Assembly: GCA_963662685.1 (NCBI GenBank)
Contig: OY759745.1
Coordinates: 17,752 to 81,751 of the forward strand
Direction: 5' to 3'
Source: Bacteroidales bacterium
Lineage (GTDB): Bacteria; Bacteroidota; Bacteroidia; Bacteroidales; VadinHA17
DNA length: 64,000 nt
In this document: piece by piece, positions 11,243 through 34,316 of the stretch
How positions within the stretch are numbered: the stretch's first letter is position 1
How the letters are laid out: each line of letters starts with the position of its first letter
The notes under the pieces: model-generated
Seen by the model: the letters and a program-made list of their open reading frames with translations, nothing else
Database searches by the model: none
What the model was told of the DNA's origin: nothing
Program-made: the position numbers and the translations under genes

Positions 11243-11392
11243 TTTTCTTCAAGAAAGCCAAACACAAAAAACAATGTCTTCATCCGTCCAATGATTCATA
11301 AGTATGAACCCTGTTATTACAAAAATAGTTTTAGATATATGCTGGCTTAAGAGAGATGTCACGTGAAATATGTCCCTGTTATACCCGTTTAA

Positions 11393-11412
11393 CCCAGGTA
11401 TTTTTACCTGGG
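11393..11412. promoter_or_regulatory. Perfect 20-bp palindrome CCCAGGTA-TTTT-TACCTGGG (core CAGGTA-N4-TACCTG), candidate operator about 160 bp upstream of cheR2
   Basis: Read directly at 11393-11412. The same 16-bp core recurs at 19062-19077 and 30950-30965, each in the non-coding region heading a minus-strand gene block. Confidence 0.45.
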
Positions 11413-11517
11413 AATAAGGGTGTTTTTTCTTGTGTGCTGGTTCCAATAAGAGGTTATCTTTACCGTTACGTTTTGTTATTTTAAATGACACTAAAAATTT
11501 AGGGTTAGATTTATTGA

Positions 11518-11549
11518 ATAGGAGGAATACTGTTTTAGTTTCCTCCTAT
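11518..11549. terminator. 10-bp perfect inverted repeat (ATAGGAGGAA / TTCCTCCTAT, 12-nt loop); possible terminator between the MCP/CheW/CheR block and the cheR2 block
   Basis: Read directly. It lies about 190 nt downstream of the stop at 11739, inside a roughly 500-bp non-coding gap. The flanking T-run is weak in either orientation, hence the low confidence. Confidence 0.3.
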
Positions 11550-11738
11550 ATTGTTTTCACTATCAAGCATATAAGCAATCCAATACCGGGATCAGAATCC
11601 AGATCACTTAAAAAAAGTTTAAATTGTTATCGGCATTGCCTCTATGATCGGAAAAACAATAAAAAACTCGCTTTTATACGTTGTGGATTAATTGTATTAC
11701 TGATTTGTGAACGATCATCCACAATCTTTGGCGGCCGT

Positions 11739-12767
11739 TCAGGATATTGGTTCCTTTACCGCATTTATCCTCATGGTTATGTTATCTATATCCTTAACAA
11801 GATCATAAACCATAAGAAAATGTTTATTTATATTTGTCTGCTCTTTGGATGGTTTAGCGGTAATTCCCTCCAGCTTTCCTCCTTTATCAAGAAAATCTAT
11901 TATTTGCCGCAATGATGTACATATCCTGAGAAAAAGATCTTCATTGCCGTCACCGGTATCACGCATTCCAATAAGATCTATAACCACGTTCTGTATTGTA
12001 TTGGTCGTCGCGGATTCGAGTTCCTGTTCCAGGGAGACAAATATTTCATCATCAAGCGATAAGCTAAGTATCTCAAGCTGAAGATGCTTTATTCTTAGCA
12101 CCTTCTTATATAATTCGACTATTCTTGAGGAACAGAAAAAAATTGATTCGAGGACTTTATCTCCGTCAGGTATATCAATAATCAATAATTCCTTGTCAAC
12201 AAAAAAAACCAACGGCTCATACGTACTACCCTGGATCACATCAGAGTAGTCAATTATAATTTTGTTCCATATTCTCGCGTAACGTTCAAAATCGTTGATA
12301 GTGTTAACCTTTGTTTTTCCCTCGAACATAACAGCCAGAAGAGATTTATCATCAATAGTATCAGTTTTGATTGCAAAATCTTTGAGTAGCTCCGTGTTCA
12401 TGCCTCCAAACCTCCGCAATTCAGAGGCCATTGCTTTTATCTGTTTTAACAATACCACTGGATTGATACTATTCTCTTCAAAATGTGAAGTCAGTTTACT
12501 GGCACCTCTTTTCCCTGTTACACCATGTTCATCAATTTTATTGAGCATTACAGTATTTAAATAAGAGCCGTCAGAGAGCTCCATCCCAAGCAAATCTTCA
12601 ATAAGCTGGCTTTTGTTTTTTTCAATCTCGGCAGTAACATCATTACCTTCTGAATTGGCCGCCAAATCCAACAATTCCATTAACGTTTCAAACTTCCGCA
12701 CAAGCTGTCTTGATTCTATCTCTGTTTTAAGATGATCTATCAGATCAATTGTTGTCTGTATTCGCAT
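11739..12767 (-). CDS. Hypothetical soluble protein, unrecognised family (paralog A); directly follows cheR
   Basis: The 342-aa ORF has no signal peptide or TM helix and no motif I can assign. It is a full-length paralog of 20226-21278. Shared blocks: TIDLIDH.K..IES.QLV.KF, G.RGA..L.H.FE.N, ERYARIW.KII.DYS, I.IP.GD..LESI, YKK.LRI..LQLE, DLF...SL.QI.DF.DKGGK.E. Confidence 0.8.
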   Translation of the reverse strand: MRIQTTIDLIDHLKTEIESRQLVRKFETLMELLDLAANSEGNDVTAEIEKNKSQLIEDLLGMELSDGSYLNTVMLNKIDEHGVTGKRGASKLTSHFEENSINPVVLLKQIKAMASELRRFGGMNTELLKDFAIKTDTIDDKSLLAVMFEGKTKVNTINDFERYARIWNKIIIDYSDVIQGSTYEPLVFFVDKELLIIDIPDGDKVLESIFFCSSRIVELYKKVLRIKHLQLEILSLSLDDEIFVSLEQELESATTNTIQNVVIDLIGMRDTGDGNEDLFLRICTSLRQIIDFLDKGGKLEGITAKPSKEQTNINKHFLMVYDLVKDIDNITMRINAVKEPIS

Positions 12768-12859
12768 ATTAAATATTTTGTATCATCGATTACTTTATGA
12801 TAAATCATTATCCACAAACCAACCGGACTTAAAGAATCATAAATATGTCCACCTCATCA

Positions 12860-13687
12860 TTAATACTTGAGAAATATCGTTGACCGGACCTGATCAAGCG
12901 GGACATCCATATTTGTTATCGATTCCGAATGACCCAGAAAAAAATGGCCACCTGCGCCGAGTTTCCCACATAGCTTGTTTATTACCGCCTCCTGTGTATC
13001 ACGATCAAAATATATCAGCACATTACGACAGAAAATAACATCAAACGGACCCTGAATATTATAATATCCCGACATGAAGTTTAAGCTTTTGAAATCAACT
13101 CTCGACCTGAGTTCAGGGACTATCCTTACAGTTTTCTCCTGCTTATCCTTACTCCGCAGAAAATACTTCTTTTTATAGTATTCTTCGACCTGTGCGATTT
13201 TTTCTTCTGGATATATAGCAACAGTCCCCCTCTGAATCATCCTGTTAGAGATATCTGTTGCCGTAATATGAAAATCAAAATCGCTGCATTTATTTTTAAA
13301 TTCCTGTAAAATCATGGCGATAGTGTATGCCTCCTCACCACTGGAACATCCCGCCGACCATACCCGCATGAATTTCTTACCGTATTCTTTATAAAATACC
13401 GGTAGCAGTTGTTCCGTCAAATAATCAAAATGAACCGGCTCCCTGAAAAAATCAGTTTTGTTAGTTGTGATTATATCCGTCATCAGTACCTTCTCGGCAG
13501 TGCCCTCTCTACTGAACACGAAATCAAGATAATCACTGAAGGAGTGTTTTTGAAGTTCCCTCAAACGGCGTTGTAACCTGCCCTGAAGCATTATCCGTTT
13601 AACATCCGGCATTTTGATCCCCAGTTCTTCCGTAATATATGCCGCCAGTCTTCTAAACTCCTTATCACCTAACTCGATCTGGTTCAT
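12860..13687 (-). CDS. cheR: CheR protein-glutamate O-methyltransferase
   Basis: TDFFREPVHF, VWSAGCSSGEEAYTIAMIL and DVIFCRNVLIYFD. Confidence 0.9.
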   Translation of the reverse strand: MNQIELGDKEFRRLAAYITEELGIKMPDVKRIMLQGRLQRRLRELQKHSFSDYLDFVFSREGTAEKVLMTDIITTNKTDFFREPVHFDYLTEQLLPVFYKEYGKKFMRVWSAGCSSGEEAYTIAMILQEFKNKCSDFDFHITATDISNRMIQRGTVAIYPEEKIAQVEEYYKKKYFLRSKDKQEKTVRIVPELRSRVDFKSLNFMSGYYNIQGPFDVIFCRNVLIYFDRDTQEAVINKLCGKLGAGGHFFLGHSESITNMDVPLDQVRSTIFLKY

Positions 13688-13797
13688 TTTGATATATCGG
13701 TAAATTCAGGGCACCGCCCATTGATCTCCACTCATATCCAACCGCATAACCCCGGCGCCCTGAGAACCTACTTAAAAAAATCCAACCCGACAACTCA

Positions 13798-15786
13798 TCA
13801 AAATTTCTCATAATCTTCATTAAGAGGGTCATTACCACTAATATTAACGGCACGGCCATGTTTCCTTTTCTGATCCTTTCCGCACACATTCCCATCGTTA
13901 TCCAGCCCAATAATCCTCTGTTTATCATCTGTTGATGCATTGTCTGCCATTTTTTTCCGAAATTCACCCGGAAGGCTGAAAAAAGAGACATTATCAAGAA
14001 GTTTTTCCGACTGTATAGCCAACGCTTCTGAACTGGTAGCGACCTCTTCAGAAGCGGAGGCGTTCTGTTGCGTCACCTGGTTCAGTTGCTGGATCGCACT
14101 GTTAACCTGTTCACTTCCAGAATTCTGTTCAGTACTCGCGGCAGCGATCTCCTGAACCAGTCTTGCCGTCTTTTCGATATCCGGTATTATCGATTCCATG
14201 AGTTCACCGGCCTCCTTTGTCATCTTAAGTGATCTTTTTGAGAGATTATCTATCTCCACCGCGGAAACCTGGCTCCTCTCCGCCAGACGTCTTACCTCGG
14301 TAGCCACTACAGCGAAACCTTTGCCGTGTTCTCCCGCCCTTGCCGCCTCAACGGCGGCATTCAAAGCCAGAATATTTGTTTCACGGGCAATCTCTCCAAT
14401 TATTGATACCTTATTTGCTATCTCTTCAACATTAATCAAGGTATTTCTTGCGGCAGCGGCAACGTTTTTTATCCCGTCAGCGGCTTTAACCGCAATTAAC
14501 CGGGTCTCCTGGGCGTTCTCCATATTCTGCTGAATATTGGCCGCCATCTCTTCCATTGACGATGATATCTCCTCAACTGACGAAGCCTGTTCAGATGCTC
14601 TCTGGCTCATCTCCTGTGAGGTAGAACTTAGTTGCTGACTGGAACCGGACATATTTTCCGCAACCATCTGAAATTCCGAGATAACCCTAGCTACAGAGCT
14701 TGCCATTTCCGAGAAAGATTGCATCAAATCATCATTTTCTGACCGTTTCCGCAAATCAACGGTCAGGTCGCCATGCGCTATCAATCTCGCCTTTTCCGTA
14801 ATCTCATCCAGGGTTTGAATCAACTGGTTCACGTTATTCTTGATCGCGTTAAAATCACCTTTATACTCTTCAATTATTTCTTCGGGAATATCGCCTATCG
14901 AAATCTTTTCAACATAGTTAGCGGATACTTTAAGGGGATTTACCAACGCATCAAGAACATCATTTAACCCGACCGTTATTTCGCGAAACTCAAAATTGGT
15001 AGTTCCCGTGTCAATTCGTGAATCAAGGTTACCGTTCAAAGCATCATCAACCAGCTTCTTAATCTGAAGTACAATGGATTTTATTATACCATTGATATTC
15101 GCAGATATCCATAATCCAACAATTATCGCGAACAAAATCCCGGCTATTATACTAATGATCAAAAATACAGTAACATTTTTCACATCTGAAACGGCGGATA
15201 TACTGGCATTTTCAGCATTACGTACCTGCATTTCTGATATTTTCTGAACATCTTCTTCACAAAGAGCCAAAACCGTACTAACCTCACTATTATAATACAC
15301 AAAAAGCTGGTAATCAAGAGTAATGCACCTAATATCTTCATTATCCAAACCCTCATCCATCATATCAGTTCTTGTATTATAATAATGGGTATATGTCTCC
15401 CCAATTGTCCTCCATGTATTAAGGTTTGAAATGAAAGAATCCCATAAAGCCTGCTCACTGGCATCCTTTTCGAACGTATTAAATTTTTCAATCTGTTCAT
15501 CCATCTCTTTCAGACGGTTCTGAATCCTGTCGGCCATTTCCCTTCTTTCCTGAACGCTATATCCATTGTTTAATAGCGCATATTCATCTGATTTGATATC
15601 TGTTTGCAGAAACTGTATCCTCGAAATAGTCTGCAGTGAGGGAATAGACTTGGACAACATCGAATCCTGGGCATCCATTGAAGTATTCATTCCTTTATAG
15701 CCAACAAAACCAACCAATATGATAATAATTGACAGGAACAAAAAACTGGTATAAAGCTTTATACGTATTGATAAATTATTCAACAT
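13798..15786 (-). CDS. Methyl-accepting chemotaxis protein (four-helix-bundle-type periplasmic sensor, HAMP, MA domain)
   Basis: The hairpin-tip signature is [41 protein letters not shown]. There are two TM segments and HAMP-like regions. The C-terminal tail is ...NEDYEKF. Confidence 0.95.
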
Positions 15787-15788
15787 AA

Positions 15789-16319
15789 CTATTGTTCTCC
15801 TGGTTTTAAATCTTTGGATTTACCGTCTAAATCTGCTTGGTTCAGCGCCTCATTGAAATCGATAATTTCCTCTGTAGCGAATACTTTATCGATATTCAGA
15901 ATCATAATGAAATTAGAGTCGCATCTTTTCATGCCACTTATGAATCCCGCATTATACTTTGTACCAATTGAAGGGGAGTCAACTATTTCCTCGTCCCTGA
16001 ACTCCAGCACTTCTTTGACCGCATCAACCAACACGCCTACCATCAGTTCTTCATTATTCTTGTTAATGCTCAAAACTATTATGCTGGAATCAACAGTTAT
16101 CTCGTTTTCCCTGAGTCCGAATTTTATCCTCATATCGACAACGGGAAGCACATTACCTCGCAAGTTTATTACGCCTTTCATATAGTCTGGCGATTTAGGC
16201 ACTTTAGTTATAGGACTCATCTCCAGGATATTTAAAACCTTGGATACATTGATCGCAAAAACTTCTTCTCCCAGTTTAAATGAAAGATATGTTTGTATAG
16301 CAGTTTGTTCTGTATTCAT
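15789..16319 (-). CDS. cheW: CheW coupling protein
   Basis: [23 protein letters not shown]...[19 protein letters not shown], a typical CheW fold signature. Its stop is 2 nt from the MCP start. Confidence 0.9.
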
Positions 16320-16369
16320 AACTTCTGTAATTGTTTGATCTTACACACAGGTATATATTCGGTAACTCT

Positions 16370-16825
16370 TTATAGAGAAAATGTAATAGGAATCATATAC
16401 CATACAGGGACGGGGACCCCGTCTTTTTTGCCCGGAATAAAGTTGTTCATTGTCTGTATAATCCTCATAGCTTCTTTATCAAGATCAGTATCGACACTTT
16501 TAAGAACACTGACCATTGTCACACTACCTTTAGCGGTTACGCAAAACTTAACAACAACCTTGCCCTGTATTCCTCTCTCCATTGCCCTGACCGGATATTT
16601 AATATTATTGCTGATGTAATCAACCATAGCGGAATTGCCGCCAGGGTACATTGGCATCTCTTCCACTGCTACATACGGTTCTATATCCGCTCCACCAGCA
16701 GCATTGCTCCCAGAGGAATTCTGTCCATTCATCACATTATTGAATAGAATTCCCGAAGTAATAACTAGCACTATGATTCTTAAGAATCGTAGATTTTTTT
16801 CATTGTAATAAAAATGATGTTTCAT
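16370..16825 (-). CDS. TonB C-terminal-domain protein (single TM anchor plus TonB_C)
   Basis: VEEMPMYPGGNSAMVDYISNNIKYPVRAMERGIQGKVVVKFCVTAKGSV...IPGKKDGVPVPVWYMIPITFSL is a TonB_C pattern. I prefer the ATG at 16825 (MKHHFYY...) over the GTG at 16864. Confidence 0.75.
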   Translation of the reverse strand: MKHHFYYNEKNLRFLRIIVLVITSGILFNNVMNGQNSSGSNAAGGADIEPYVAVEEMPMYPGGNSAMVDYISNNIKYPVRAMERGIQGKVVVKFCVTAKGSVTMVSVLKSVDTDLDKEAMRIIQTMNNFIPGKKDGVPVPVWYMIPITFSL

Positions 16826-16966
16826 CAGAATATAATTTAATTTTAATTGACTGAAGGAACCCACATGTCTCTTATCAGACGCATCAGTTCATGCGCGAAA
16901 TCTACATTTGGGTTATATAAAATGGAATTAATTGTTCATAGTTTCAAAAATACCTTTCAGAGAAAA

Positions 16967-18844
16967 CTAAAACCTCTCATAATTAGCGTCATGGGCATCT
17001 TTGTTCATGTTGATGGTAACGCCCCGTTTTGCTTTGTTTGAGGACCCGTTTGGTTTAGAATGTTTTTTATCCGGCAAGTTATTGTTGGCTATATTGACAT
17101 TCGCTCCCATTTTAAGACCATGTCGCTCCATAGAAACCATTTCTGATTTCAGTTTAAAGAAAGAGATCATTTCCAGTAGTTGTTGTGCCTGGCTTGCCAG
17201 TTCTTCTGAACTTGTTGCCATCTCTTCTGAAGCGGCGGCATTTTGCTGGGTAACCTGGTTAAGTTGCTGAATGGCGCTGTTTACCTGGTTAGCGCCGGAG
17301 TTTTGCTCAATACTTGCGGCAGCGATCTCCTGAACAAGCTTAGCCGTTTTTCCGATCTCAGGAGCGATAGCTCCAAGCAGTTTCACTGATTCCTCGGTAG
17401 CATTGACACTATTTTTAGTCAGGTTATCAATTTCAACGGCTGATAACTGGCTTCTTTCCGCAAGTTTCCTCACCTCAGCGGCCACAACCGCGAATCCCTT
17501 TCCGTGCTCTCCGGCCCTTGCCGCTTCAACTGCGGCATTAAGAGCCAGAATATTCGTCTGACGGGCTATTTCTCCAATAATCGACACCTTGTCGGCTATA
17601 TCTCTCATATAGTTCAAAGTCTGGTCAGAAGCCTCTTTTACCTTGCTTATGCCCTCAGACGCATTAAAGGCTATCTTTTCTGTCTGTTGGGCGTTCTCCG
17701 TATTTTGTTGAATATTGGCAGCCATCTCTTCCATTGAAGAAGAAACCTCTTCGGCTGAAGAGGCTTGTTCAGATGCGCCCTGACTGAGCTCTTGTGAAGT
17801 GGAACTCATCTGTTCACTTGAAGCTGAAATATTGTTGGCGGCCGATTGGAATTCAGTAATAATCCTGGCCGTAGATTTAACCATATCGGTCAACGACTGT
17901 AAAAGATGATCATTATCAGAACGCTTTTTAAGATCTACAGTCAGGTCACCAGAGGCGACCATTTTTGCTTTTACCACAATATCGTTCAGAGTATTTATGA
18001 GAAGATTCAAATTACTGATAATTATATTAATATCTCCTTTATACTTATCAGTAATCACAGATGGCATATCACCTATAGAAATCTTTGAAATATAGTCAGC
18101 CGCAAGATCTAACGGTGTAACAAGCGAATCAACGACATTATTAAGGCCCTTTGTTATGCCCCTGAATTCAAAGTTTGTCCTCATAACATCGGCCCTTATT
18201 TTAAGGTTCCCGTCCAGAACACCGTCAACAACATCTTTTATCTGATTGTTTACTGCAGTAATATTGTTTTGAATGGACCTTCCAAGAACAAGACCAAGAA
18301 TTATAGCCAGGGCCACTCCAATTAATATAGCGACAACCGTAGCGTTTCTTGTTACGTTTATCACATGGAGAAGATCATCCTCATATATAGTTGTGGATAC
18401 ATACCACTCGGCCGGCTCGTAATAAGTGAAATGCTGGTATTTTATACGTCCTTCCCATTCATACGTGATCTTTCCTTCACCCATAGCGATCATCTCTTTA
18501 AAAAAGTCCTCGTTAGCTATATTATCGCCCTCACTGGTCGGATGAATTATAAACGTCCCGCCTTTATCTACAACATAGCCATAACCATTCGTATAAAACT
18601 TTTTCTCGTTGAAAATTTCTTTTAAAACTGTGAGGTCACTGTCCCTGTGTATACCAATCTGCAAATCGATCATCTGTTTCATATCGGACACCTGTTCAAA
18701 GAGTCTGTCATCAGAGTCGGATATTACGGATTTCCTTTGATTCCTAATGGAATATAACCCAAAGATTATCAATATTACACAAACAGCGAGACTTAGGGTA
18801 ACACTGAGTTTAGCACCTGTAGTCAGATCATTGATTTTTTTCAT
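16967..18844 (-). CDS. Methyl-accepting chemotaxis protein (single-Cache-like periplasmic sensor, HAMP, MA domain)
   Basis: Cache-like [20 protein letters not shown]. Signalling tip [42 protein letters not shown]-terminal tail ...DANYERF. I prefer the ATG at 18844 (MKKINDL...) over the TTG at 18871. Confidence 0.95.
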
Positions 18845-19061
18845 TTTTACATGCTTAAAAGTTTCAAACAATTATGGTCTTGATATTTAGATTTACTTAA
18901 TCACTGAAAATTAAGACAACAGCATTACCATATCCAGTACCGTATTGGGTTTTATGATCCATCTCTTTCCCGTTTTTCAGCAATATCAAATGTAGTTAAG
19001 AACAAACTCCAGTTTTAGAGAATTGTCACCTGAAATACTTCCAGGTTACACCTGTTTATCT

Positions 19062-19077
19062 CAGGTATTTTTACCTG
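19062..19077. promoter_or_regulatory. Palindrome CAGGTA-TTTT-TACCTG, candidate operator about 200 bp upstream of the MCP gene, with extra half-sites nearby
   Basis: Read directly. Additional ACCTG/CAGGT half-sites lie at 19028-19032, 19042-19046 and 19050-19054. A candidate -7 box (TACATTTG on the minus strand) lies at 18987-18994. Confidence 0.45.
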
Positions 19078-19130
19078 TGACAACTGGTGGTTTACTCTTA
19101 CATATTACGATTGTATCAGGCTGGGAACCA

Positions 19131-20207
19131 TTAAACTCCCGACAGTACTAAAGGTATTTTATCCAATGGCAGGATTCTGCAAACAGAATTGAGCTTAATT
19201 GCTTCCTTTGGCATTCCGAAGACAACACAACTTTCCTCGTCCTGGGCGACGGTAAGTGCACCCGCTTCTTTCATCTCAAGTAATCCCCTGGCACCATCAT
19301 CCCCCATTCCTGTCATTATTATGCCTATAGCGTTTGCTCCGGCGAACTGGGCCGCTGATCTGAACAGTACATCAACGGAAGGCCTGTGCCTGTTAACCAG
19401 GGGACCGTCAGTGATCTTAACATAATATCTGGCACCACTTCTTTTAACAAGCATATGCTTGTTTCCCGGAGCGATCAGGGTGTGCCCCCTTAAAATGCTA
19501 TCCCCGTCTTCAGCTTCTTTGACATTGATCCTGCATGACTGGTTCAATCTGTTAGCAAATGATTTGGTAAACATTTCAGGCATGTGCTGGACAATAACGA
19601 TACCAGGAGAATCAGAAGGCAAAGCTTCAAGAAATCGGGCAATAGCCTCTGTTCCTCCTGTTGAAGCGCCAACAACCACGACTTTCTCGGTTGTTTTGAT
19701 CATACTCTGTTTTCTCATGGAAGACAATACTACATCAGCGCTATATTTTGGAGGAACCGTAACGGGAATCTGACCGAAAGCATATTTCAGTTTCTTTTGT
19801 CTGCCTTTTGTCATCGCGGCAGCCCTGACAGCATCGCATAATACGATCTTCGACTCCTCAAAAAATTCCTTTGTGGCAAGTTGCGGTTTTGTTATTATCT
19901 CAACAGCGCCAAGCTCCATAGCTCTCATAGCTGTTTCAGTACCACTGGCTGTAAGACTCGATATTATCACCACCGGAATAGGATGTTGGGTCATAATTTT
20001 TCTGAGAAAAGTAATACCATCCATCCTTGGCATCTCAATATCAAGAGTTATCACGTCAGGTACTTCTTCTTTGATTATATGCGCCGCACGATAAGGATCT
20101 GAGGCTGTATCCAAAACCTCAAGCATAGGGTCAGATATGAATATTTCCTTTAATACCTGGCGTACCAGCGCTGAATCATCAACTATCAGTACTTTGATTT
20201 TCTTCAA
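19131..20207 (-). CDS. cheB: CheB methylesterase, full length (REC + catalytic domain)
   Basis: REC motifs: [29 protein letters not shown]. Catalytic motifs: [30 protein letters not shown]. The start is TTG: an in-frame TAG lies 2 codons upstream, and the next Met would truncate the REC domain. Confidence 0.9.
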
Positions 20208-20225
20208 AACTATTTTATTAACAGA

Positions 20226-21762: not shown

Positions 21763-22643
21763 CAGAAAACCTCATTACGTGACGAAATCTCCGAGCCCTC
21801 TTCCCCAAAAAGATCATAGATACTTGTAACGTCCGCAGCTTCAGGGATATATAATCTGAATTCTGACCCCTGTCCGATATGGCTTGTCAACGATATGTTG
21901 CCATCAAGCAGTTCTGTCAGCGACCTGACTATCGCCAATCCGAGACCATGCCCCCTGTTCAGAGAATTTATCCTGTCGTCGACCCTCTTGAACCTGTCAA
22001 AAATCAGCTCTTTATTATCCTCCTCAATACCAATTCCGTCATCCCTTACAGCTACCATTATTCCTTCGCCACATTTTTCCATATTAACACTGACACGCCC
22101 GTTTTCAGTATATTTTACGGCATTACTTATTAGATTGGAGATAATAAGCTTTATTTTTTCTTCATCGATATAAAAAAAACTGTCAGGTAAACCTTTCGCC
22201 AGTACCAGGGAGACGTTCCTGCTGTCCGCTTCATGCCTGAAAGAGTCCATAATATTGTTAATAATCTCTACAATATTAACTTTTGACGCCTCTATATATA
22301 GTTCCCCTGCCTCAATCTTTGCACTGGCAAAAATATTTTTAAGCTGAAAATCAAGGCTGAAAGCTTCATCATAGATCAATCTGATCATATTGTATACTTT
22401 CTCCGGGACTAAACTCTTCATCATCAAGAGGTTTCTCGATAAGCCCAATATTGATGCGAAGGGATTGATTATCTCATTTGTTATGCTGGAAATAAAATGA
22501 GTCTTAAGTGCCTCTGATTCTACTAATTTTTCATTGGCGCTGACAAGCTCCTTTGACAATTCCTGTTGCTCCAAGAGCATATTTTTATACTCGCTGAACC
22601 TGCGTTCAAGTTCGTTCAATAGCTGTTCCTCCGAGATTTTCAT
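21762..22643 (-). CDS. Cytoplasmic histidine-kinase-like protein (coiled coil, DHp, HATPase_c) with the phospho-acceptor His replaced by Asn
   Basis: The H-box region KTHFISSITNEIINPFASILG aligns in register with the canonical [21 protein letters not shown], giving H->N. The CA domain looks intact: N-box NLISNAVKYT, G1 DDGIGI, F IFDRFKRV, G2 GHGLGLAIV. The C-terminus is ...SRNEVF. Confidence 0.8.
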   Translation of the reverse strand: MKISEEQLLNELERRFSEYKNMLLEQQELSKELVSANEKLVESEALKTHFISSITNEIINPFASILGLSRNLLMMKSLVPEKVYNMIRLIYDEAFSLDFQLKNIFASAKIEAGELYIEASKVNIVEIINNIMDSFRHEADSRNVSLVLAKGLPDSFFYIDEEKIKLIISNLISNAVKYTENGRVSVNMEKCGEGIMVAVRDDGIGIEEDNKELIFDRFKRVDDRINSLNRGHGLGLAIVRSLTELLDGNISLTSHIGQGSEFRLYIPEAADVTSIYDLFGEEGSEISSRNEVF

Positions 22644-22673
22644 TATTGTATATATTAGATATTTAATACCGCA

Positions 22674-24707
22674 TCATTCTCTATATGAAAACGAACTGAT
22701 TATTTTATTGGGGTCCAGCAATAGGGCAACGGTTCCATCACCCAGAATAGTAGCCCCAGAAATCAGTTCCTGTTGTTTGTACATCAAACCGAGAGTCTTC
22801 AGAACCGCCTGATATTCACCAATAACGTGATCCACTGCCAGTCCAAAAAAAGTATCCCCCTGTCTTATCACTACAACTTCCTCATTAGCAGGAGACTCGG
22901 TTTTGATATTGAACTCTTTCCTAAGATATATGAAAGGTATATGTCCGTCATTGACATAAATAAGATTATTGACCGGGTTTATCAGTTCCTGGTGTTTAAA
23001 CTCCATGCACTTGTTAACAAAATTCAGGGGAATAACAAAAAACGAGTTATCTATACTTACAAGGAGCCCATCAATAATTGAAAGAGTCAATGGAAGTTTT
23101 AATATTATGGTCGTTCCTTTGTCAATTTCGGATTTTATTTCCACTTCCCCCCTGAGTTCGGATATTTTTCTCTTAACCACATCCATACCCACGCCCCTGC
23201 CTGAAATTTTCGTTATGCTTTCGGAAGTAGAAAAACCCGGAAGGAAAATAAAATCCAAAATATCCTTGCCGGCCACATCCTCATCAGAAGAAATAAGGCC
23301 TGAATCCAATGCGCGTTTTTTTATTCTTACCGGATCTATTCCTTTTCCATCGTCGGAGATCTCCATAATAACGTTAGCCCCAGAATAATAAGCTTTCAGT
23401 CTTATTTCTCCACGTTGAGGTTTACCCTTTTCCTTCCTGACTTCAGGGCATTCAATACCATGATCAATACTGTTCCTAATAATATGCATTATAGGGTCCA
23501 CCAATCCTTCTATCATATTTTTGTCCATTTCAGTATCGGTTCCTTCTGTCTGAAAGGCGATATCTTTGTTCATCTCATTTGACAACTCCCTTACCAGGCG
23601 TTGAAAACGGGTAACCATATTTTCAACAGGAATAAGCCTAATGCCAAAAGTATTATCCCTCAACCGGCGGGTGATCTTTTCGATATCCTCAGAAAGCTGC
23701 ATCAGTTCTTTATTATCAATACGCTCTGAAACAAGGGAAAGTCCGGCCTGACGTGTTACCAACTCACTTACAAGATTGATAAGTTCATCCAGCTTATCTG
23801 AAGAAACGCGTATGCTTGATATATTATTTTCTCTGATCGCCCTCTGGACTTTTTCAGTATGCTCCTCTGGTACCGGACCAACTTTATTAGGTTTGCGTCC
23901 CTCCGCGATACCTTCAATATCTGATACCTGTATCTTGTCTGAAGTAACCGCCGCATCGAGAAGCTTAATGAATTCCTCATCAGACAAAAGATCCTTGTCG
24001 CTTATCTTCTTAATCAACAGATTACAATCAAGATCCACAAAAATGAAAACATCCCGTATATCCTTCTCCGACACCTCGGTTGACAGAACAATTACCCAGG
24101 ACACATAACATGAATGGACGTCGAGTTCCGCGAAATCAGGTATTTTCGCAAGTCCCGGAATCACCCTGGATGTTCCTAGAGTTGTCAGTTCCTTAACGGT
24201 AAGTAACGGATTCGTACCATTTTTCAAAATATCTTTTTTCGGTTCAAAGCAGATATAATATGTTGACTTCCCCCCCATGATGGTACCGGATGTTTTTTCA
24301 TTGCTTTCATTTCCTTCATCATTTCCGGTATTTGGGCCCAATAGTCCGGCTATAGACTTCAACAACATCTCATGATTATCCAAAGTCTCAGGGGACAACT
24401 TATCATCCTCACTAAGCAGAACTTTAATATGGTCAATCGATTTAAATGTAATGTCCATAAAATGGTCGGTTACAATATCCTGACCACTTCTTATCCTGTC
24501 AAAGGCGGATTCCATCTGGTGGGTAAAAAAATCAATCTTATCAAAACCAAACATAGCGCTGGCGCCCTTAAGTGAATGCATTGCCCTGAAGATAACTTCA
24601 ATATGCTCTTCATTAGTAGGATCTTCGCTAAGTTTAAGAGAGGATTTTTCTAGATCCAGAATAAGATCAAGAGCCTCTTCAATAAATTTGTACTTGAATT
24701 GTTCCAT
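22674..24707 (-). CDS. cheA: CheA histidine kinase
   Basis: Hpt H-box AMHSLKGASAMFGF. Kinase motifs: HIIRNSIDHGIE, DDGKGID, GRGVGMDVV. A C-terminal CheW-like domain is present. Confidence 0.95.
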   Translation of the reverse strand: MEQFKYKFIEEALDLILDLEKSSLKLSEDPTNEEHIEVIFRAMHSLKGASAMFGFDKIDFFTHQMESAFDRIRSGQDIVTDHFMDITFKSIDHIKVLLSEDDKLSPETLDNHEMLLKSIAGLLGPNTGNDEGNESNEKTSGTIMGGKSTYYICFEPKKDILKNGTNPLLTVKELTTLGTSRVIPGLAKIPDFAELDVHSCYVSWVIVLSTEVSEKDIRDVFIFVDLDCNLLIKKISDKDLLSDEEFIKLLDAAVTSDKIQVSDIEGIAEGRKPNKVGPVPEEHTEKVQRAIRENNISSIRVSSDKLDELINLVSELVTRQAGLSLVSERIDNKELMQLSEDIEKITRRLRDNTFGIRLIPVENMVTRFQRLVRELSNEMNKDIAFQTEGTDTEMDKNMIEGLVDPIMHIIRNSIDHGIECPEVRKEKGKPQRGEIRLKAYYSGANVIMEISDDGKGIDPVRIKKRALDSGLISSDEDVAGKDILDFIFLPGFSTSESITKISGRGVGMDVVKRKISELRGEVEIKSEIDKGTTIILKLPLTLSIIDGLLVSIDNSFFVIPLNFVNKCMEFKHQELINPVNNLIYVNDGHIPFIYLRKEFNIKTESPANEEVVVIRQGDTFFGLAVDHVIGEYQAVLKTLGLMYKQQELISGATILGDGTVALLLDPNKIISSFSYRE

Positions 24708-24814
24708 TATAAGTTTCTATTCCTCAAAGTGACTAATGCGTTAAAATGTCCACATACTGATCTGTCTCCGGGTAACACTATTGAATGCGTTTCAGATCAG
24801 TTGATCATTTTGGT

Positions 24815-25180
24815 TCAGTTAAGCACCTTGTAAATAGCGCTTATAAGCTTGGCGGGTACAAAAGGTTTAATGATCCACCCAGTAGCACCGGCATCCCTGG
24901 CTTCAAGTTTCTTTTCCACCTGAGATTCGGTGGTAAGGAACAAAATAGGAATCAGCTTATAGTTCTCGTTATTTCTAACTGCCTTAATCAGCTCAATACC
25001 ATTCATAACTGGCATGTGTAAATCAGTTATAATAAGATCAATCTTATCGCCGTTAAGGAATTTAAGAGCGTCGTGTCCGTTAATCCCCACTTTTACCTTG
25101 AACCCCTCGTTCTCTAGAGTAAAAGAGACCACTTCTCTTATACTCTCTGAATCATCTACGATTAAAATAGTTCGTTCCAT
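24815..25180 (-). CDS. cheY: CheY single-domain response regulator
   Basis: ILIVDDSE, IITDLHMPVMNG, LFLTTES and WIIKPF: all receiver signature residues are present. Confidence 0.9.
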   Translation of the reverse strand: MERTILIVDDSESIREVVSFTLENEGFKVKVGINGHDALKFLNGDKIDLIITDLHMPVMNGIELIKAVRNNENYKLIPILFLTTESQVEKKLEARDAGATGWIIKPFVPAKLISAIYKVLN

Positions 25181-25198
25181 GTTTGAAGTAATATATTA

Positions 25199-25525
25199 TT
25201 ATTGCCTAATGTTTATCATGTCCCCAAATCCGGTATTACACATAAGATCAACCACATAAATTTCATCATCGCAATTAATCAACAACGATTGCCCCATATC
25301 TGCCAACTTTTTTCGATATGAGTAAAGCACCTGTATGCTGGTCAGGTCATATGAATCTATATTTCTAAGGTCAATTACGACATTGCTCCCATCCGGGTTC
25401 AACGATTCAAGGGCATGTTTCAGATTAATTATTTCCTTTACTGCGATATCGCCCTCAAGTTTAATATGATAAAGGTTATCGCTTTCATTTGTACCCGATT
25501 GTATTTTGAATCCTGTATTACTCAT
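25199..25525 (-). CDS. STAS-domain protein (anti-sigma-antagonist-like)
   Basis: The 108-aa ORF has the pattern IKLEGDIAVKEI...VVIDLRNIDSYDLTSIQVLYSYRKKL. The Ser in IDS sits at the position phosphorylated in SpoIIAA/RsbV-type proteins. Confidence 0.7.
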   Translation of the reverse strand: MSNTGFKIQSGTNESDNLYHIKLEGDIAVKEIINLKHALESLNPDGSNVVIDLRNIDSYDLTSIQVLYSYRKKLADMGQSLLINCDDEIYVVDLMCNTGFGDMINIRQ

Positions 25526-25537
25526 GTTTACATATAA

Positions 25538-27322
25538 TTAAAACAGCTCTATATCATAATCATCCGTATTATCCTTCGCGGAAATGCTATCGGTGAAACC
25601 ATCGTTTATAACCTGATCATGAACAATCCTTTCGCTAGCTACCGTATAAAACACTTCCATCTCTTTGAGATTCTTCTCTTTCAGACTTTTACAACTACTT
25701 TCCCCATCTTTTTTCAACCGATAGTTAATCATATCTAACTTGCCAATAATATTAGCCAGAAGTTTTTCGAATAATTCATTATAATCGGCCTGGTTCAATA
25801 TGTTCTTCAGACGATCCATAACGTCTTTCTTGATGCTTCCATTCTCAACTATAACTGCATCCATATTTTTGCCTTCAACATCAAGCTGATCAAGTACTTT
25901 ACTGACTTTGACCATGACTTTTATCTGTTCTTCTTCAAGAGAGGTCCTAAAACCCGAATTATCGAACTTAACCTGGAATGCTTCCGATAATCCTCTAAAC
26001 TCTGACAATTCCTTCTCCATTTCAGAATTTTTTTCGAAAATATCTCCGATCAATGATGCTATTTGAACCACTATATTGGGCTTTTCTGCAGCATTATTCC
26101 TTGAAAAAACACTTATAGGTATTCCCGGTTCAAGATTTTTCAAAGGCCTAGTCAATGATTTATTCGCTTTATCGCAAACCTTATCGACCAAACCCCTAAT
26201 ACTAAGCAAGTCAGCATTAAATATATTCGAATTGTATTCATCAAGAACCATAAGGAACCTGTCGAGCCGACCTTTCACGACATTTAATAGAGTTGTCCCG
26301 GAATCGGATTCATCCAGAGAAAATTCATGCGAAACCGTTGATACCATAGTAATATCACCAGCAATCTTCTGGAAATTCCGGGAAATGACATCAAGGGCAT
26401 TCTGATACTCCTTTGAGATAAGAATCAGTTGAGCCGACTGGAGTCCGGAAAGGTCGGCTATAAGCGACAATATATCATCATCATCGCTGATAATTATGTC
26501 GCCGCCATGTTCATCAAGCTTAGCCACCAGTTTCGCCGTGATTTTCTCGTGCGACTCATGGATATGCTCTATTTTCTGCCTTATTATATCATGATACTGC
26601 AGGTGCTTGATAATATTGGCAATAGAATCTGTCGTACTTTTCAACTTTTCCCTGATTTCTGGAACATACATCCTTGATTCCATCTTTTTCTTTTTTATCA
26701 ATGAAATAGACGATTTCAGTTCTTCAAAAAAAACCGCATTTATGGCAATACATTTTTGTGAATGCGACCTTACGGCATCGTTCAGAGTTTCCAGTTTTTT
26801 TCTGACAATAACAGTATGCTCATCGAGTACCGTCAAACAGGCAAGAATACCGTCAACATACTTTTCCCATCTGTTTATTTCACCCAAAGCAATAACCGAC
26901 AGCTCCTCGTTTCTTGAAATGACTTTATAATTTGAGAACAGAAATTTCAGTGTCAGCATATCCTGCTTCATATTTCTTATCAGCAACAAAATACTATCAG
27001 CCTTAGCGTTAAGCTTTGACTCTGTCATAAGATTTACATCCAGTTCATTCTCGGTGCCAGATCTGAAATCAACATATTCATCAAATATGTCGTACAATTC
27101 GGATGAAAAAGAGTAATCACCGTTATCCGCTATCGAATCAAATATATGTGTCGCATTGGACGTAACTGTGTTATTCTTTTTAGAATAGTCTTTCAGAAAA
27201 CTATTTAAATGCATAAACACCTGCGATGAACTGTCATATAGTTCACGGATTATCAAGTCAATATCATGAAAGACTCCAAGAAGCTCTCCAATTTTAATAT
27301 ACCTGTCGTCCTGTTTCAACAT
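25538..27322 (-). CDS. Hypothetical 594-aa helical protein with an HDxxxQ motif and an acidic C-terminal tail
   Basis: The ORF has no TM helix or signal peptide. The central segment is IIKHLQYHDIIRQKIEHIHESHEKI and the C-terminus is ...KDNTDDYDIELF. It sits 12 nt upstream of the STAS gene. Confidence 0.8.
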   Translation of the reverse strand: MLKQDDRYIKIGELLGVFHDIDLIIRELYDSSSQVFMHLNSFLKDYSKKNNTVTSNATHIFDSIADNGDYSFSSELYDIFDEYVDFRSGTENELDVNLMTESKLNAKADSILLLIRNMKQDMLTLKFLFSNYKVISRNEELSVIALGEINRWEKYVDGILACLTVLDEHTVIVRKKLETLNDAVRSHSQKCIAINAVFFEELKSSISLIKKKKMESRMYVPEIREKLKSTTDSIANIIKHLQYHDIIRQKIEHIHESHEKITAKLVAKLDEHGGDIIISDDDDILSLIADLSGLQSAQLILISKEYQNALDVISRNFQKIAGDITMVSTVSHEFSLDESDSGTTLLNVVKGRLDRFLMVLDEYNSNIFNADLLSIRGLVDKVCDKANKSLTRPLKNLEPGIPISVFSRNNAAEKPNIVVQIASLIGDIFEKNSEMEKELSEFRGLSEAFQVKFDNSGFRTSLEEEQIKVMVKVSKVLDQLDVEGKNMDAVIVENGSIKKDVMDRLKNILNQADYNELFEKLLANIIGKLDMINYRLKKDGESSCKSLKEKNLKEMEVFYTVASERIVHDQVINDGFTDSISAKDNTDDYDIELF

Positions 27323-27339
27323 ATATGCTTGTCTTTTTA

Positions 27340-29304
27340 CTAAAAGAGATCTACCGATATCTGTTGGGCGAAAATCGTGAATGTCTCATTGTTTCCTACC
27401 TTCGCCCTTGTTAATGTGACCAGCATGTCATAATCCCTGCCGTCTTCACTGACCCAGCTTACCTCAGTCCTTACACCCAACTCCCTTTGTTCTCCGTTTA
27501 TTCCCGAATATGCGGTATATGAACCGTTCTTCTGTTCGAGTTTAAGCGGAATGATATCCTCTATCATTCTGCCCATGATGGTACTGCGCTGAATGCCCCA
27601 GGTCTCTTCGGCAGTTTTATTGAAATATTCTATCTTGCCTGTATGGTCAAAGCTTATCACACTATCAACACACCCCTCAAGAATAGCGATATTTTTTGCC
27701 TTTTCCGTCTCTATATCAATGATCTTTTTCTTAAGTCCGGTACTCGCCTCTTCTAATTTTTCGCTCAGGTTCTGTTTAATATCTTCAAGCTCACGAGTAT
27801 ATACCTGAAGTTTATCTCCCTGCATCCTGAGTTCCTCTGCCTGTCTCTTCGTCTCCAGTTCAACGTTCTTTTTCTCAGTAATATCAGTAGCCAGGGCAAT
27901 CACCTTATATGGTATACCATCCTTATTCAACGCTGGTGTATAAGACGCATTCAGCCATATCTCACGACCGGTTCTGGTCACTCTCTTGAAATCGCCACTT
28001 TGAAGCTTTCCAGTGACCAACTGTTTCCAGAATTCGTTATAAAATTCTATTGGTTCATTGGATTTGTCCGCGAATATCCTGTCTGTCTGGTTTACTATCT
28101 CTTCAATGGAATACCCCATCATGTCAAGAAACTTATTGTTGGCGTCAATTATCCTTCCCGACATATCGAATTCAACAGTAGCGATGGTATTGTTTATGGC
28201 AGTGAAAATACCGATTCTCTCAACTTCCCGCTGCTGCATCTCCTCCTGTGTAGCGTTCATCTCCTCCATGCTCTGACGCAACTCTTCCTCCTGTGTACGT
28301 AGCTCCTCGGTCAGCTTTTGGGAGTCCTGAAGCAACTTCTTTGTTTGCTTGTTGATGTTAGTCCGTGAGATGGTTGACGCGACAATCTCCGCCAGTCTCT
28401 CTACGAACTCTATTTCGAATGGTTCAAATTGTCTGAAAGAGGCAAACTCCATAACCCCAAAAAGCTCCTCGTTAAATAGTAACGGAACTATCAAAATGCT
28501 TGTAGGATTGGCATCTCCGAGCCCTGAAGTAATTTTTATAAAGCTATCAGGAACATCGATAAGATAGATCGTACCCTTCTCTATAGCAGCCTGTCCTATC
28601 AACCCTTCACCAATCTTAATTTTTTTGGAGATATATTTTTTTCTGTTCCATGCATAAACAGAAACCATCTCAAGAAAGGGGTCGTCCTTATTATCGTTAT
28701 TAAAAAGATACATTGCCCCCTGATTTACGGCAAGGTATTTGATCAGATCCGACAGAAACCTATCAAACAAGACTTTAAGATCGTCAACATTATCCCTCAA
28801 TATGGCTCCAAACCTGGCAATACCTTCTGTTGACCATTGTGCCCGGGCATCTTCTGTCACAAGCTTGTGGAGTTTATCCCTCATACCCTTAATTGAGTAT
28901 CCCAACTTATCATCTTCACTCAATACAACATATTCTATATTGAAATTTCCGTCGCCAATCTTTTCCAGAAAATCGGCCTGTTCAAACTGATTCTTAACGA
29001 TCAAGTTGATATATTGAGAGATATTGCCAAACTCATCCTTGCTTTCAAGTTTTATCTTGGCGTCAAGATCGCCTACCGAGATCATCCGCAACACTCTCTC
29101 TATCTCCTTGACAGGAATATAAATGTATCTGTGTATAATTCTGTATACAAGGTACAATGCGATCATCCATATTGCCAGCACTATTATTAAAGACGAAACC
29201 TGTCCGTAAATTGCCGGCAGGGAGATATTTCTAAGAACGAACACAACACCACTGATAATAATAACCAGTAATAATGCCAATATTAGATTGATCTTCGATC
29301 GCAT
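27340..29304 (-). CDS. Membrane sensor: 2 TM, HAMP, GAF, coiled coil, PAS, PAS, with no recognisable output domain
   Basis: HAMP: PVKEIERVLRMISVGDLDAKI. GAF: GQAAIEKGTIYLIDVPDSFIKITSGLGDANPTSILIVPLL...VMEFASFRQF. Two PAS-like segments follow. The protein ends right after the second PAS (...QQISVDLF). Confidence 0.8.
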   Translation of the reverse strand: MRSKINLILALLLVIIISGVVFVLRNISLPAIYGQVSSLIIVLAIWMIALYLVYRIIHRYIYIPVKEIERVLRMISVGDLDAKIKLESKDEFGNISQYINLIVKNQFEQADFLEKIGDGNFNIEYVVLSEDDKLGYSIKGMRDKLHKLVTEDARAQWSTEGIARFGAILRDNVDDLKVLFDRFLSDLIKYLAVNQGAMYLFNNDNKDDPFLEMVSVYAWNRKKYISKKIKIGEGLIGQAAIEKGTIYLIDVPDSFIKITSGLGDANPTSILIVPLLFNEELFGVMEFASFRQFEPFEIEFVERLAEIVASTISRTNINKQTKKLLQDSQKLTEELRTQEEELRQSMEEMNATQEEMQQREVERIGIFTAINNTIATVEFDMSGRIIDANNKFLDMMGYSIEEIVNQTDRIFADKSNEPIEFYNEFWKQLVTGKLQSGDFKRVTRTGREIWLNASYTPALNKDGIPYKVIALATDITEKKNVELETKRQAEELRMQGDKLQVYTRELEDIKQNLSEKLEEASTGLKKKIIDIETEKAKNIAILEGCVDSVISFDHTGKIEYFNKTAEETWGIQRSTIMGRMIEDIIPLKLEQKNGSYTAYSGINGEQRELGVRTEVSWVSEDGRDYDMLVTLTRAKVGNNETFTIFAQQISVDLF

Positions 29305-29366
29305 TCCGGATATTGTTAACTCATTAATAAATTAACGTTGCACGCTGTTTATGAATTACCAAATAT

Positions 29367-30272
29367 TTATTGATTGTAAATGAGCCGGGAACGTATTTCC
29401 CTTACAAGATTAGCGACTTCATCAACCTGTTCGTACGAGATCATGGCCTTTGAAGTACTTTTATCTACTATCACCAGCCTGCCATCAATCTCAACAGCCT
29501 CTGGCTCCCGATATTCATATGATATTGTTATTTCAGAGTAAAGATACTTAAGGTCGTTCATATCAGCCAGAATATCTATGAAATAACTATCTTCCGAGTA
29601 AGCCGATAGCCCCAGGATAAGTTGGTCTATAATAGCTTTCTGATGACCAATCCATTGCATGATATCGTCATTATTCCGTATCATATAATTCTGAGACGCG
29701 ATGTAAAGACCCTCAAGCCACGTACCAAAAACCATCAATATACTCATGTTACTTCTTTTCTTGGAACGCAGGAAAGAATCCATGTTATTGAAATTAATGG
29801 TTGTCAGATAAATGAGAGAATCCATCTGGGAACTGTTCGATGCCATCCGTTTGATTGTCGCGAAATCAAAAAACTGGCCTATATCTATATCGTCCGCCAG
29901 TTTTTGAATAGTGCCCAGATAGTTTATCATCAAATATGTCTTTTCATAAATATTGATATATCCCATATCAGCGCTGTAAACGCCAAGTCCCAGGGCTTTG
30001 GACATATCGTTGGTATAAAGCTGAATGTTATCAATATCATTAAGAAACTCCTCCTCAAAATCAATCCCGTTGTGCTCAAGAACCATCGCAATCTCTATAG
30101 GAGATGGAATTGATTCTATTATTTCATTCATAGATTCTTCCGAAATCTCCAGATTCTCAGATTCTTCAGCGAGTAAGGAATCGATGGAGAGTTTATCATT
30201 ATTTGCTTGTCTCCCTCCACATGCTGATAACAAAATAGCTATAGCGACTAAAAAAACGATTTTTATCTTCAT
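29367..30272 (-). CDS. Hypothetical lipoprotein
   Basis: The lipobox MKIKIVFLVAIAILLSAC appears if translation starts at the ATG at 30272; the track start at 30302 adds 10 aa. I recognise no family. Confidence 0.65.
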   Translation of the reverse strand: MKIKIVFLVAIAILLSACGGRQANNDKLSIDSLLAEESENLEISEESMNEIIESIPSPIEIAMVLEHNGIDFEEEFLNDIDNIQLYTNDMSKALGLGVYSADMGYINIYEKTYLMINYLGTIQKLADDIDIGQFFDFATIKRMASNSSQMDSLIYLTTINFNNMDSFLRSKKRSNMSILMVFGTWLEGLYIASQNYMIRNNDDIMQWIGHQKAIIDQLILGLSAYSEDSYFIDILADMNDLKYLYSEITISYEYREPEAVEIDGRLVIVDKSTSKAMISYEQVDEVANLVREIRSRLIYNQ

Positions 30273-30308
30273 GAATATATAATTTGAAATTTCCGAAACC
30301 ATTTTTAT

Positions 30309-30821
30309 TTATTGTTTTATTCCAAGGATGCACATCCCACATCCTGATTTTGAATTCTTAAACTGTACCCTCATGTAATAAAGTCCTGTAGCCGAGCATA
30401 AAAACTTCAGATTCGAAAAAACCTCGCCATCTTCCCGGCAAGTAGAGGCTATAAGCCTGTCTTCCCGGTCATAAAGATTGATTATAATATTAGCACTGCT
30501 CTCCTCCTTCCCTTCACACGCTATAATTATATACTCCGCTCCTTCACTGAATACATAATAGAGTTCAGACTTATCCATTTTTCTCTTACTGGAAACAAAT
30601 GATTGAATATAGTGGTACTCCTCCAGATTGACGGAACAGCTATGTAGAAATGCCCCCGTATCACACTGCCCATATGAAGTATATGAAAAAAGAAAGGCAC
30701 ACATAAATACACAGATTGTATATAAACATCCCCGGCTTTTATCCAAATACCCTCTATTCAATGAATAACTCTCCATGTATTTAATTTTCATCTCAGATTT
30801 TTTTCGCATAAATTTTGGCAT
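30309..30821 (-). CDS. Small secreted PPC-like protein, paralog of 1316-1750 (start codon uncertain)
   Basis: Hydrophobic leader ...CVFMCAFLFSYTSYGQ. Blocks YIIIACEG...IIINLYDREDRLIAST...FLCSATGLYYMRVQF...GCGMCILGI align by eye with 1316-1750. Confidence 0.55.
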   Translation of the reverse strand: MPKFMRKKSEMKIKYMESYSLNRGYLDKSRGCLYTICVFMCAFLFSYTSYGQCDTGAFLHSCSVNLEEYHYIQSFVSSKRKMDKSELYYVFSEGAEYIIIACEGKEESSANIIINLYDREDRLIASTCREDGEVFSNLKFLCSATGLYYMRVQFKNSKSGCGMCILGIKQ

Positions 30822-30949
30822 TACAATAATGTAAGCTAATCACAAACATGTCAAAATTAGTCCCTATGTATTCTATTCATAGAGGAGAATACACTCGATT
30901 TAAAAAAACCATCACCTAATTAATTAACCGTATATATACTGGAGATTTC

Positions 30950-30965
30950 CAGGTAATAATACCTG
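30950..30965. promoter_or_regulatory. Palindrome CAGGTA-ATAA-TACCTG, candidate operator about 135 bp upstream of the first gene of the supercluster
   Basis: Read directly. A candidate -7 box (TAATTTTG on the minus strand) lies at 30852-30859. Confidence 0.4.
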
Positions 30966-34275: not shown

Positions 34276-34278
34276 CAA

Positions 34279-34316
34279 AAAGGAGGCTATCGAATACAAT
34301 GGCCTCCTTTTTTTTA
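34279..34316 (+). terminator. Rho-independent terminator after tRNA-Val
   Basis: The stem AAAGGAGGC / GCCTCCTTT carries a 14-nt loop and runs straight into a run of eleven T (34308-34318). Confidence 0.75.

Follow-up and report, generated by a model that had tools for sequence, protein, structure and literature searches.

A chemosensory supercluster in the genome of an uncultured Bacteroidales bacterium (VadinHA17 lineage) raises the question of how its genes are controlled and by which regulator. To our knowledge, the host group has no flagella, and we know of no established purpose for its Che-like pathways. The window considered here is a stretch of 64,000 nucleotides (C1:17752-81751) of a single-contig genome of 3,102,842 bp with 41.8% G+C, in which the supercluster is arranged as three transcription units: unit A (30821->19131), unit B (18871->11739) and unit C (11242->1886). 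All genes of the region lie on the minus strand, including two that encode NarL/FixJ-type response regulators, and the palindrome CAGGTA-N4-TACCTG lies in front of each of the three units. As described below, each palindrome is the distal end of a phased array of half-sites that is kept in register with a promoter element, a fourth array precedes the regulator operon, and these arrays very probably serve as operators of the linked NarL/FixJ-type regulatory system.

The initial annotation had reported three exact copies of the palindrome together with their spacers, all of which were recovered by pattern search of the window (11395, 19062 and 30950), while none of 100 dinucleotide shuffles of the window yielded any exact copy. 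One of them had been described as a perfect 20-bp palindrome (11393-11412): its inverted-repeat arms do reach 8 bp, but the TTTT spacer is not self-complementary. The enrichment that was to be gauged by a genome-wide count proved to be pronounced, with four exact copies observed against 0.16 expected; the fourth (C1:1831704) is inside a long open reading frame (ORF), and the three copies in the window are the sole intergenic exact copies in the genome. All 13 one-mismatch copies likewise fall within long ORFs, including one with a TTTT spacer (C1:2909514), which was rejected as a site owing to its location inside glutamate synthase. When a weight matrix, derived from 11 orthologous sites and made symmetrical, was run across the genome, the window sites scored 23.8-24.7 bits, the next best match (within a gene) 19.6 bits, and the best other intergenic match 16.6 bits; none of these remaining intergenic candidates (<=16.6 bits) was accompanied by an array or by a -7 box at the right distance. 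Chance matches in this genome occur at a rate of about one site per 180 kb with up to one mismatch and one per 17 kb with up to two, corresponding to a frequency of ~0.001-0.015 within any given 250-bp spacer. The consensus of 14 sites is CAGGTA-wwww-TACCTG, a 6-4-6 inverted repeat present here in three exact copies, whose length is within the range (14-20 bp) that suits a head-to-head dimer of helix-turn-helix (HTH) proteins.

Every site in the window is an array with a period of 22-23 bp locked to a -7 box, a feature that goes beyond what was described initially. This arrangement is apparent in a register alignment of 16 promoters from seven genomes, anchored on the T of the -7 element TAnnTTTG. 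Along the coding strand, hexamers of the type CrGGTr come ~23 and 46 bp after the palindrome. A hexamer occupies the -38 register in 16/16 promoters, the other registers being -60, -82 and, in promoters of the class of site s3 (in front of unit A), -105. The -82 register corresponds to the left half of the palindrome in promoters of the class of site s1 (in front of unit C), and -105 to the palindrome itself in the s3 class, whose array has one unit more than that of the s1 class. The gap between palindrome and -7 box is 66 or 67 nt in six s1-class promoters and ~90 nt in the s3 class. An array is composed of three or four units, of which the best palindrome is the most distal, and the most proximal ends beside the -33 region, its last half-site being located 37-39 bp upstream of TAnnTTTG. 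In several relatives (G571, L194), two full palindromes occur 23 bp apart. The -7 element itself is found at the fixed distance in all 16 promoters, ending in A rather than G only at the fourth site (s4) of this genome. A strict composite regular expression gave no matches in the relatives, where spacings vary by 1-2 bp, and it was replaced by inspection anchored on the -7 box. A general scan for sigma-70 promoters and terminators gave counts at shuffle level.

The individual arrays, all on the minus strand, are organized as follows. Site s3, which precedes unit A, has the distal palindrome CAGGTATTATTACCTG (30950-30965) and three further units with a period of 23 bp (30892-30942), namely CCAGTA (30937-30942, weak), TAGGTG (30913-30918) and CGAGTG (30892-30897); the proximal unit starts 38 bp upstream of the -7 box, TAATTTTG (30852-30859). 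The s3 unit registers are filled in 7/7 s3-class promoters, and orthologous sites are present in G475, G012, G580, G503, G571, G555, L189, L191, L192 and L194. Site s2, which precedes unit B, has the palindrome CAGGTAAAAATACCTG (19062-19077), second and third units that are both CAGGTG (19049-19054 and 19027-19032), and the -7 box TACATTTG (18987-18994). The extra half-sites noted earlier around this palindrome are these two hexamers and an ACCTG that adjoins the first of them. Site s1, which precedes unit C, has the same palindrome, CAGGTAAAAATACCTG (11395-11410), units CGGGTA (11382-11387) and CACGTG (11360-11365), and the -7 box TATTTTTG (11320-11327), which starts exactly 67 nt after the palindrome, as it does in five other s1-class promoters; orthologous sites occur in G475 (exact), G012, G555 and G580. 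The three -7 boxes lie where the initial annotation had placed them, whereas the distance from palindrome to start codon, given there as about 135-200 bp, was measured as 129 to ~215 nt and varies with the start codon chosen. A short CTC(T) motif is also kept in most promoters ~4 nt downstream of the promoter-proximal hexamer (in the window at 11351-11358, 19017-19022 and 30880-30886); it may represent the second half of the proximal unit in degenerate form, or else a point where the polymerase makes contact.

The fourth array was found with a composite pattern that leaves out the palindrome and consists of two hexamers 16-18 nt apart followed 30-33 nt on by TAnnTTT[GA]. This pattern matched three times genome-wide, at s1, at s2 and at a new site (33822-33890), and not at all in a reversed-genome control. 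The new array, s4 (33822-33913), comprises a degenerate distal unit (~33908-33913), two CACGTG hexamers (33885-33890 and 33863-33868) and the -7-like box TAATTTTA (33822-33829). Downstream of it are an 83-aa lipoprotein-like ORF (33508-33759) and then the regulator gene 32456-33127. Small ORFs at the equivalent position, and better-preserved arrays in front of them, are found in G012, G503, L189 and L194. The G503 array contains the full palindrome CAGGTGAATATACCTG, and that of L194 the exact CAGGTATTTTTACCTG, with a downstream operon in the order small ORF, HisKA_3 kinase, regulator. An array thus stands before the regulator's own operon in five lineages (G000, G012, G503, L189 and L194), suggesting that the regulator autoregulates; the arrangement is one expected of an autoregulated two-component operon. 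The initial proposal of one regulon is supported by phylogenetic footprinting, with the amendment that it spans four promoters instead of three.

To determine how widely the arrays are conserved, and with which regulator they travel, a survey was made of 201 genomes of the family, in which regulator orthologues were defined by at least 60% identity. Orthologues of the 32456-33127 regulator are present in seven of them (G000, G475, G012, G503, G555, G571 and G580), and all seven carry arrays. In the remaining genomes, nothing closer than a paralogue at ~50% identity was present; the query genome's copy of that paralogue adjoins a HisKA_3 kinase of its own at C1:670 kb. The PP2C gene of unit C, used as a marker, is found in six of the same seven genomes and in no others. 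Orthologous superclusters are located in G012 and G580 (same genus), in G475 (another genus; record OY764960.1, 64-88% protein identity), and in G555 and G571 (a third genus). The palindrome recurs with 0-2 mismatches at the orthologous promoter in these five genomes, as regards both the position between CheB and the second CheR (s1 class) and that before the first unit (s3 class). Seven species and five metagenome contigs have the array of palindrome plus half-sites at the promoters that correspond. Between genera, promoter identity is 0.6-0.9 in the motif columns, in the same register, as opposed to 0.25-0.45 outside them, which is near random for the base composition. A large protein collection contained more than 100 clusters of regulator orthologues above the same identity threshold. 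Among seven contigs inspected (62-74% identity), six have the regulator directly beside the same Che cluster, and arrays are present in 5/5 of the cluster-bearing contigs for which DNA was available. Distant CheA clusters of other families (G028, G032, G034, G036, G039 and G040) have neither LuxR genes nearby nor the palindrome. A contig scan with the HAMP-GAF-PAS protein of unit A matched only G475 and one distant sequence, and a metagenome contig scan with the regulator alignment gave only paralogues at <=51% identity, its patterns being generic receiver motifs.

Both regulator proteins consist of Response_reg and GerE domains according to Pfam, have VraR, NarL, DevR and DesR as their closest solved structures (NarL 1A04 at E 3e-32), and retain the receiver residues DD, D, T/S and K as read from their sequences. 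The product of 32456-33127 (minus strand) is conserved as partner to the arrays and is considered the likeliest protein to bind them. All seven of its aligned orthologues from the family have the recognition helix SLRT(I/V)EGHKSNL, from which the metagenome copies depart very little (one has HKSKL). The second regulator (SQRTLENYKSIM) and the five other GerE proteins of the genome have different helices. The second regulator (31100-31798, minus strand; the ATG at 31762 is the likelier start) is a paralogue that is absent from L189, L190, L191 and L194 and poorly conserved elsewhere (42-64%), and is for these reasons regarded as accessory. Linkage of regulator and cluster was seen in 12/13 loci examined, and the association persists even though the place of the regulator varies, being before unit A in some loci and after the ABC gene in others. 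Taken together, linkage, matching phyletic distribution, arrays at the regulator's own operon and a geometry like that of NarL/FixJ activators make it very probable that the arrays are operators of the linked regulator or regulators, and likely that the 32456-33127 protein is the main binder. Of the two LuxR-type regulators first named as candidate binders, only this one is the conserved partner.

The description of these regulators as orphans applies to their immediate surroundings here, but orthologues usually adjoin a PAS-HisKA_3 kinase: in G555, G571, G580, L190, L191, L193 and L194, a (REC-)PAS-HisKA_3 kinase with the H-box FAQDLHDxLGPLLST directly precedes the regulator. The query genome has an unpaired 1145-aa multi-PAS HisKA_3 kinase (C1:13010-16447; H-box SSELHDGIGPILST) 1.3 kb to the left of the window, on the far side of the supercluster. 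This kinase is the genome's best match to the regulator-adjacent kinases; given an identity of only 29-41%, it is put forward solely as a candidate partner and phosphodonor. A 287-aa PP2C (SpoIIE) gene is located convergently beside it, and the region upstream of the kinase gene contains no array.

These features are consistent with a mechanism in which a phosphorylated regulator, most likely the 32456-33127 product, binds CAGGTA-N4-TACCTG as a dimer, this promoter-distal palindrome being the high-affinity unit. Further dimers would then cooperatively fill the two or three weaker units, which have only the CrGGTr half and follow at intervals of 22-23 bp, until the last dimer, beside the -33 region and 37-39 bp upstream of the -7 box, could contact RNA polymerase and activate transcription. 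The 31100-31798 paralogue may cooperate with the main regulator or modulate it, and the phosphoryl group might be supplied by the multi-PAS kinase. Four promoters would be controlled in this way, those of the three chemosensory units and that of the small-ORF/regulator operon, the latter providing positive autoregulation.

Several observations weigh against this interpretation. The compared promoters are related by descent, and s1 and s2 are duplicates, so that counts of "independent" sites overstate their independence. The -7 boxes are putative elements assigned from consensus and conservation, and no conserved TTTG is present ~20 bp upstream of the -7 box among the 16 aligned promoters. The orientation of the half-sites differs from that in the NarL 7-2-7 operator, and a 23-bp period slightly exceeds two helical turns. 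As two regulators are present, the binder may be either of them or a heterodimer. Finally, locus L193 (4488-8642) encodes a 62% orthologue with the same recognition helix, an adjacent REC-PAS-HisKA_3 kinase and then a Big_5-domain protein, and has no Che genes or array within 6 kb of the regulator; either its regulon is to be found in another part of that genome, or the regulator has undergone rewiring.

The alternative that fares best retains both the sites and the binder and changes only the sign of regulation, such that the regulator would be a repressor or anti-activator and the array a roadblock or looping element. NarL-family proteins can repress, strong palindromes could be occupied in the resting state, and tests based on sequence do not distinguish the sign. 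Repressors, however, normally overlap the core promoter or start site, whereas the whole of the array is found upstream of the core promoter (~-46 to -105), in the activation geometry known from BvgA. Activation is favored over repression because the register to the -7 box is strict (fixed within 1-2 bp in at least 16 promoters) and because a conserved -33 element is missing, an absence that fits dependence on an activator but is no proof of activation. Activation by the array is therefore considered likely, and repression improbable.

Alternatively, the motif could be the operator of an unlinked factor, such as a Crp/Fnr-type or another dimeric HTH protein that recognizes CAGGT-N6-ACCTG, with the LuxR-type genes as mere passengers of the island. 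A 5-6-5 inverted repeat fits several HTH families, and co-transfer of the island could account for both linkage and co-occurrence. Nevertheless, the cluster encodes no further DNA-binding domain in any of the genomes examined, the unit period of 22-23 bp is characteristic of NarL/FixJ dimers, and both the arrays before the regulator's own operon and the persistence of the association despite changes in relative position are difficult to reconcile with a passenger role. In addition, G503 has lost most of the cluster, and yet it has kept the regulators together with the arrays: its remnant (L104, C6:7762-11480) retains arrays s3 and s4, the two regulator genes, the gene for the 170-aa protein and a truncated version of that for the 311-aa protein. 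An unlinked factor, for which only the generality of palindromes speaks, is quite improbable, though less so than explanations that do without a DNA-binding protein. Among the latter, a hairpin in RNA transcribed through from the upstream gene, with a role in termination, processing or stabilization, would be compatible with the position of the copies, 54-330 nt downstream of the preceding same-strand gene, and with the 6-8-bp hairpin that they would form if transcribed (z = -3.1 to -4.5). Against it, no copy is followed by a T-run, the element continues as direct half-site repeats that are unable to pair, and no Rfam family matches, the only Rfam match being a tRNA (34201-34275). Moreover, across 14 distinct orthologous sites, pairs are broken on one side (14/84 cells) with no covariation, and 406/500 shuffles reach the observed score, leaving a function as RNA very improbable. 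The view that the repeats are non-functional leftovers of promoter duplication could appeal to the 86% identity of s1 and s2 in motif columns (52% elsewhere) and to the relocated appearance of unit B with its duplicated 342/365-aa gene, but s3 and s4 have only the motif units in common with s1 and s2, and orthologous promoters in other genera retain those units where flanks are at random-level identity, making this explanation next to negligible.

The genes downstream of the arrays encode elements of a Che-type pathway together with additional signaling and transport proteins. Unit A comprises 170-aa and 311-aa proteins, a HAMP-GAF-PAS sensor, a 594-aa protein without a Pfam domain, STAS, CheY, CheA (22674-24707), a histidine kinase-like protein, CheD, a 365-aa protein of unknown function and CheB. 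Even under relaxed Pfam settings, no HisKA_3 match was obtained for the 594-aa protein. In the long ENA contig L190 (11959-18504), the GAF sensor, the 594-aa protein and CheA are broken into many short ORFs, probably reflecting assembly frameshifts rather than decay. The 311-aa protein (29367-30302), for which Pfam likewise gives no domain, is one of a multi-copy family represented five times in this genome, and it was rejected as a marker for the cluster as the family is widespread (167/401 sampled genomes of the order). Unit B comprises a methyl-accepting chemotaxis protein (MCP) with a Cache domain, TonB_C, CheW, a second MCP (4HB), CheR and a 342-aa paralogue of the 365-aa protein. Unit C comprises CheR, a receiver-less CheB, a GAF protein, a GAF-PAS-PP2C phosphatase, two DUF6272 proteins, SiaC and an ABC exporter.

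The MCP-CheW-MCP-CheR block is located inside unit A, after CheA, in G475 (L097/L098) and G012 (L048/L049), where a single gene of the 365-aa type is present. In this genome (11739-21323), the same block follows CheB as a unit of its own and is accompanied by the diverged 342-aa duplicate. The separate block, the diverged duplicate and the similarity of the s2 array to s1 together suggest that unit B arose by relocation and duplication, including duplication of the promoter array. An internal array has also been observed in L189 (18340-18420), where an exact CAGGTAATTTTACCTG with two phased half-sites lies between CheA and CheW; it resembles s2 of this genome and a weak site before the MCP genes in G012 (L048:14238). 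Around the regulator genes, two unusually long spacers (31798-32456, ~660 nt, and 33127-33508, ~380 nt) contain no Rfam match, array or ORF of at least 100 aa. On its upstream side, the region of regulator and chemosensory genes is bounded by the plus-strand tRNA gene, directly followed by a terminator-like hairpin with a 14-bp stem (34277-34312).

The mechanism so described is conventional; what is strongly supported is the cis-regulatory array, which proved larger and more regular than first noted and which defines, for a hitherto unstudied NarL-type two-component system on a Bacteroidales chemosensory supercluster, a regulon of four promoters. The regulon links the CheA/CheY core, the receptors, the adaptation enzymes, a SiaABC-like phospho-switch and an ABC exporter, and it names both a regulator and a candidate kinase. 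For an unstudied supercluster of an uncultured organism, it provides a precise cis-regulatory code, consisting of four promoters, a consensus site and an exact spacing, that makes the cluster experimentally tractable. A further possibility, tentative and rather unlikely, is that the NarL-type system is joined with the Che-like pathway in a single closed circuit, in which the regulators would also be phosphorylated, directly or indirectly, by the CheA of the cluster or by its His-less kinase-like module. If so, a Che-type pathway in a non-flagellated Bacteroidales would control its own genes, the SiaABC-like switch and the ABC exporter, amounting to a chemosensory system with transcriptional output and positive feedback. 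The logic would be comparable to that of Che3/CrdA in Myxococcus, except that the regulator here is of the NarL type.

Comparison with characterized regulators of the same family places the arrays among known operator designs. The 7-2-7 operator of E. coli NarL and NarP consists of TACYYMT heptamers whose TAC ends point outward (TAC...N2...GTA). The likeness to a NarL-type heptamer that was noted initially holds for the half-site, as TACCTG shares TACYY with it, and does not extend to the arrangement: here the TAC ends are innermost (GTA-N4-TAC), the spacer is 4 bp rather than 2 bp, position 6 of the heptamer is G instead of A or C, and phased secondary units are the rule. A strict NarL 7-2-7 operator was therefore rejected, TACYY being the only common element. 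ComA of Bacillus subtilis, also a NarL-family regulator, recognizes a 6-4-6 inverted repeat (RE1/RE2, TTGCGG-N4-CCGCAA), and extra downstream half-sites in direct orientation (RE3/RE4) are needed at activated promoters. The arrays resemble ComA boxes in combining a 6-4-6 palindrome with downstream direct half-sites, and differ from them in sequence and in the spacing of the extra half-sites.

A closer counterpart in layout is offered by BvgA, a NarL/FixJ-family activator. At Pfha, three head-to-head BvgA dimers bind 22 bp apart (center to center) on one face of the helix, with the consensus inverted repeat furthest upstream and the proximal dimer abutting the -35 element, and Bordetella Pptx has six weak units at 22-bp spacing (PMC7250471). 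Likewise, in the arrays described here, as known from sequence, the strongest palindrome is the most distal, the weaker units are phased (~-38, -60, -82 and -105), and the proximal unit abuts the -33 region; it is because this geometry matches that of BvgA at the fha promoter that the array is read as an activator platform. The two systems differ in the half-site (CAGGTA here, as compared to the BvgA heptad with its primary site TAAGAAATTTCCTA), in its arrangement (6-4-6 as opposed to abutting heptads) and in the period (22-23 bp as opposed to strictly 22), and the promoters are of the Bacteroidota -7/-33 type, indicating that a BvgA-style design, in which phased weak sites follow a strong distal one, also occurs with Bacteroidota -7 promoters.

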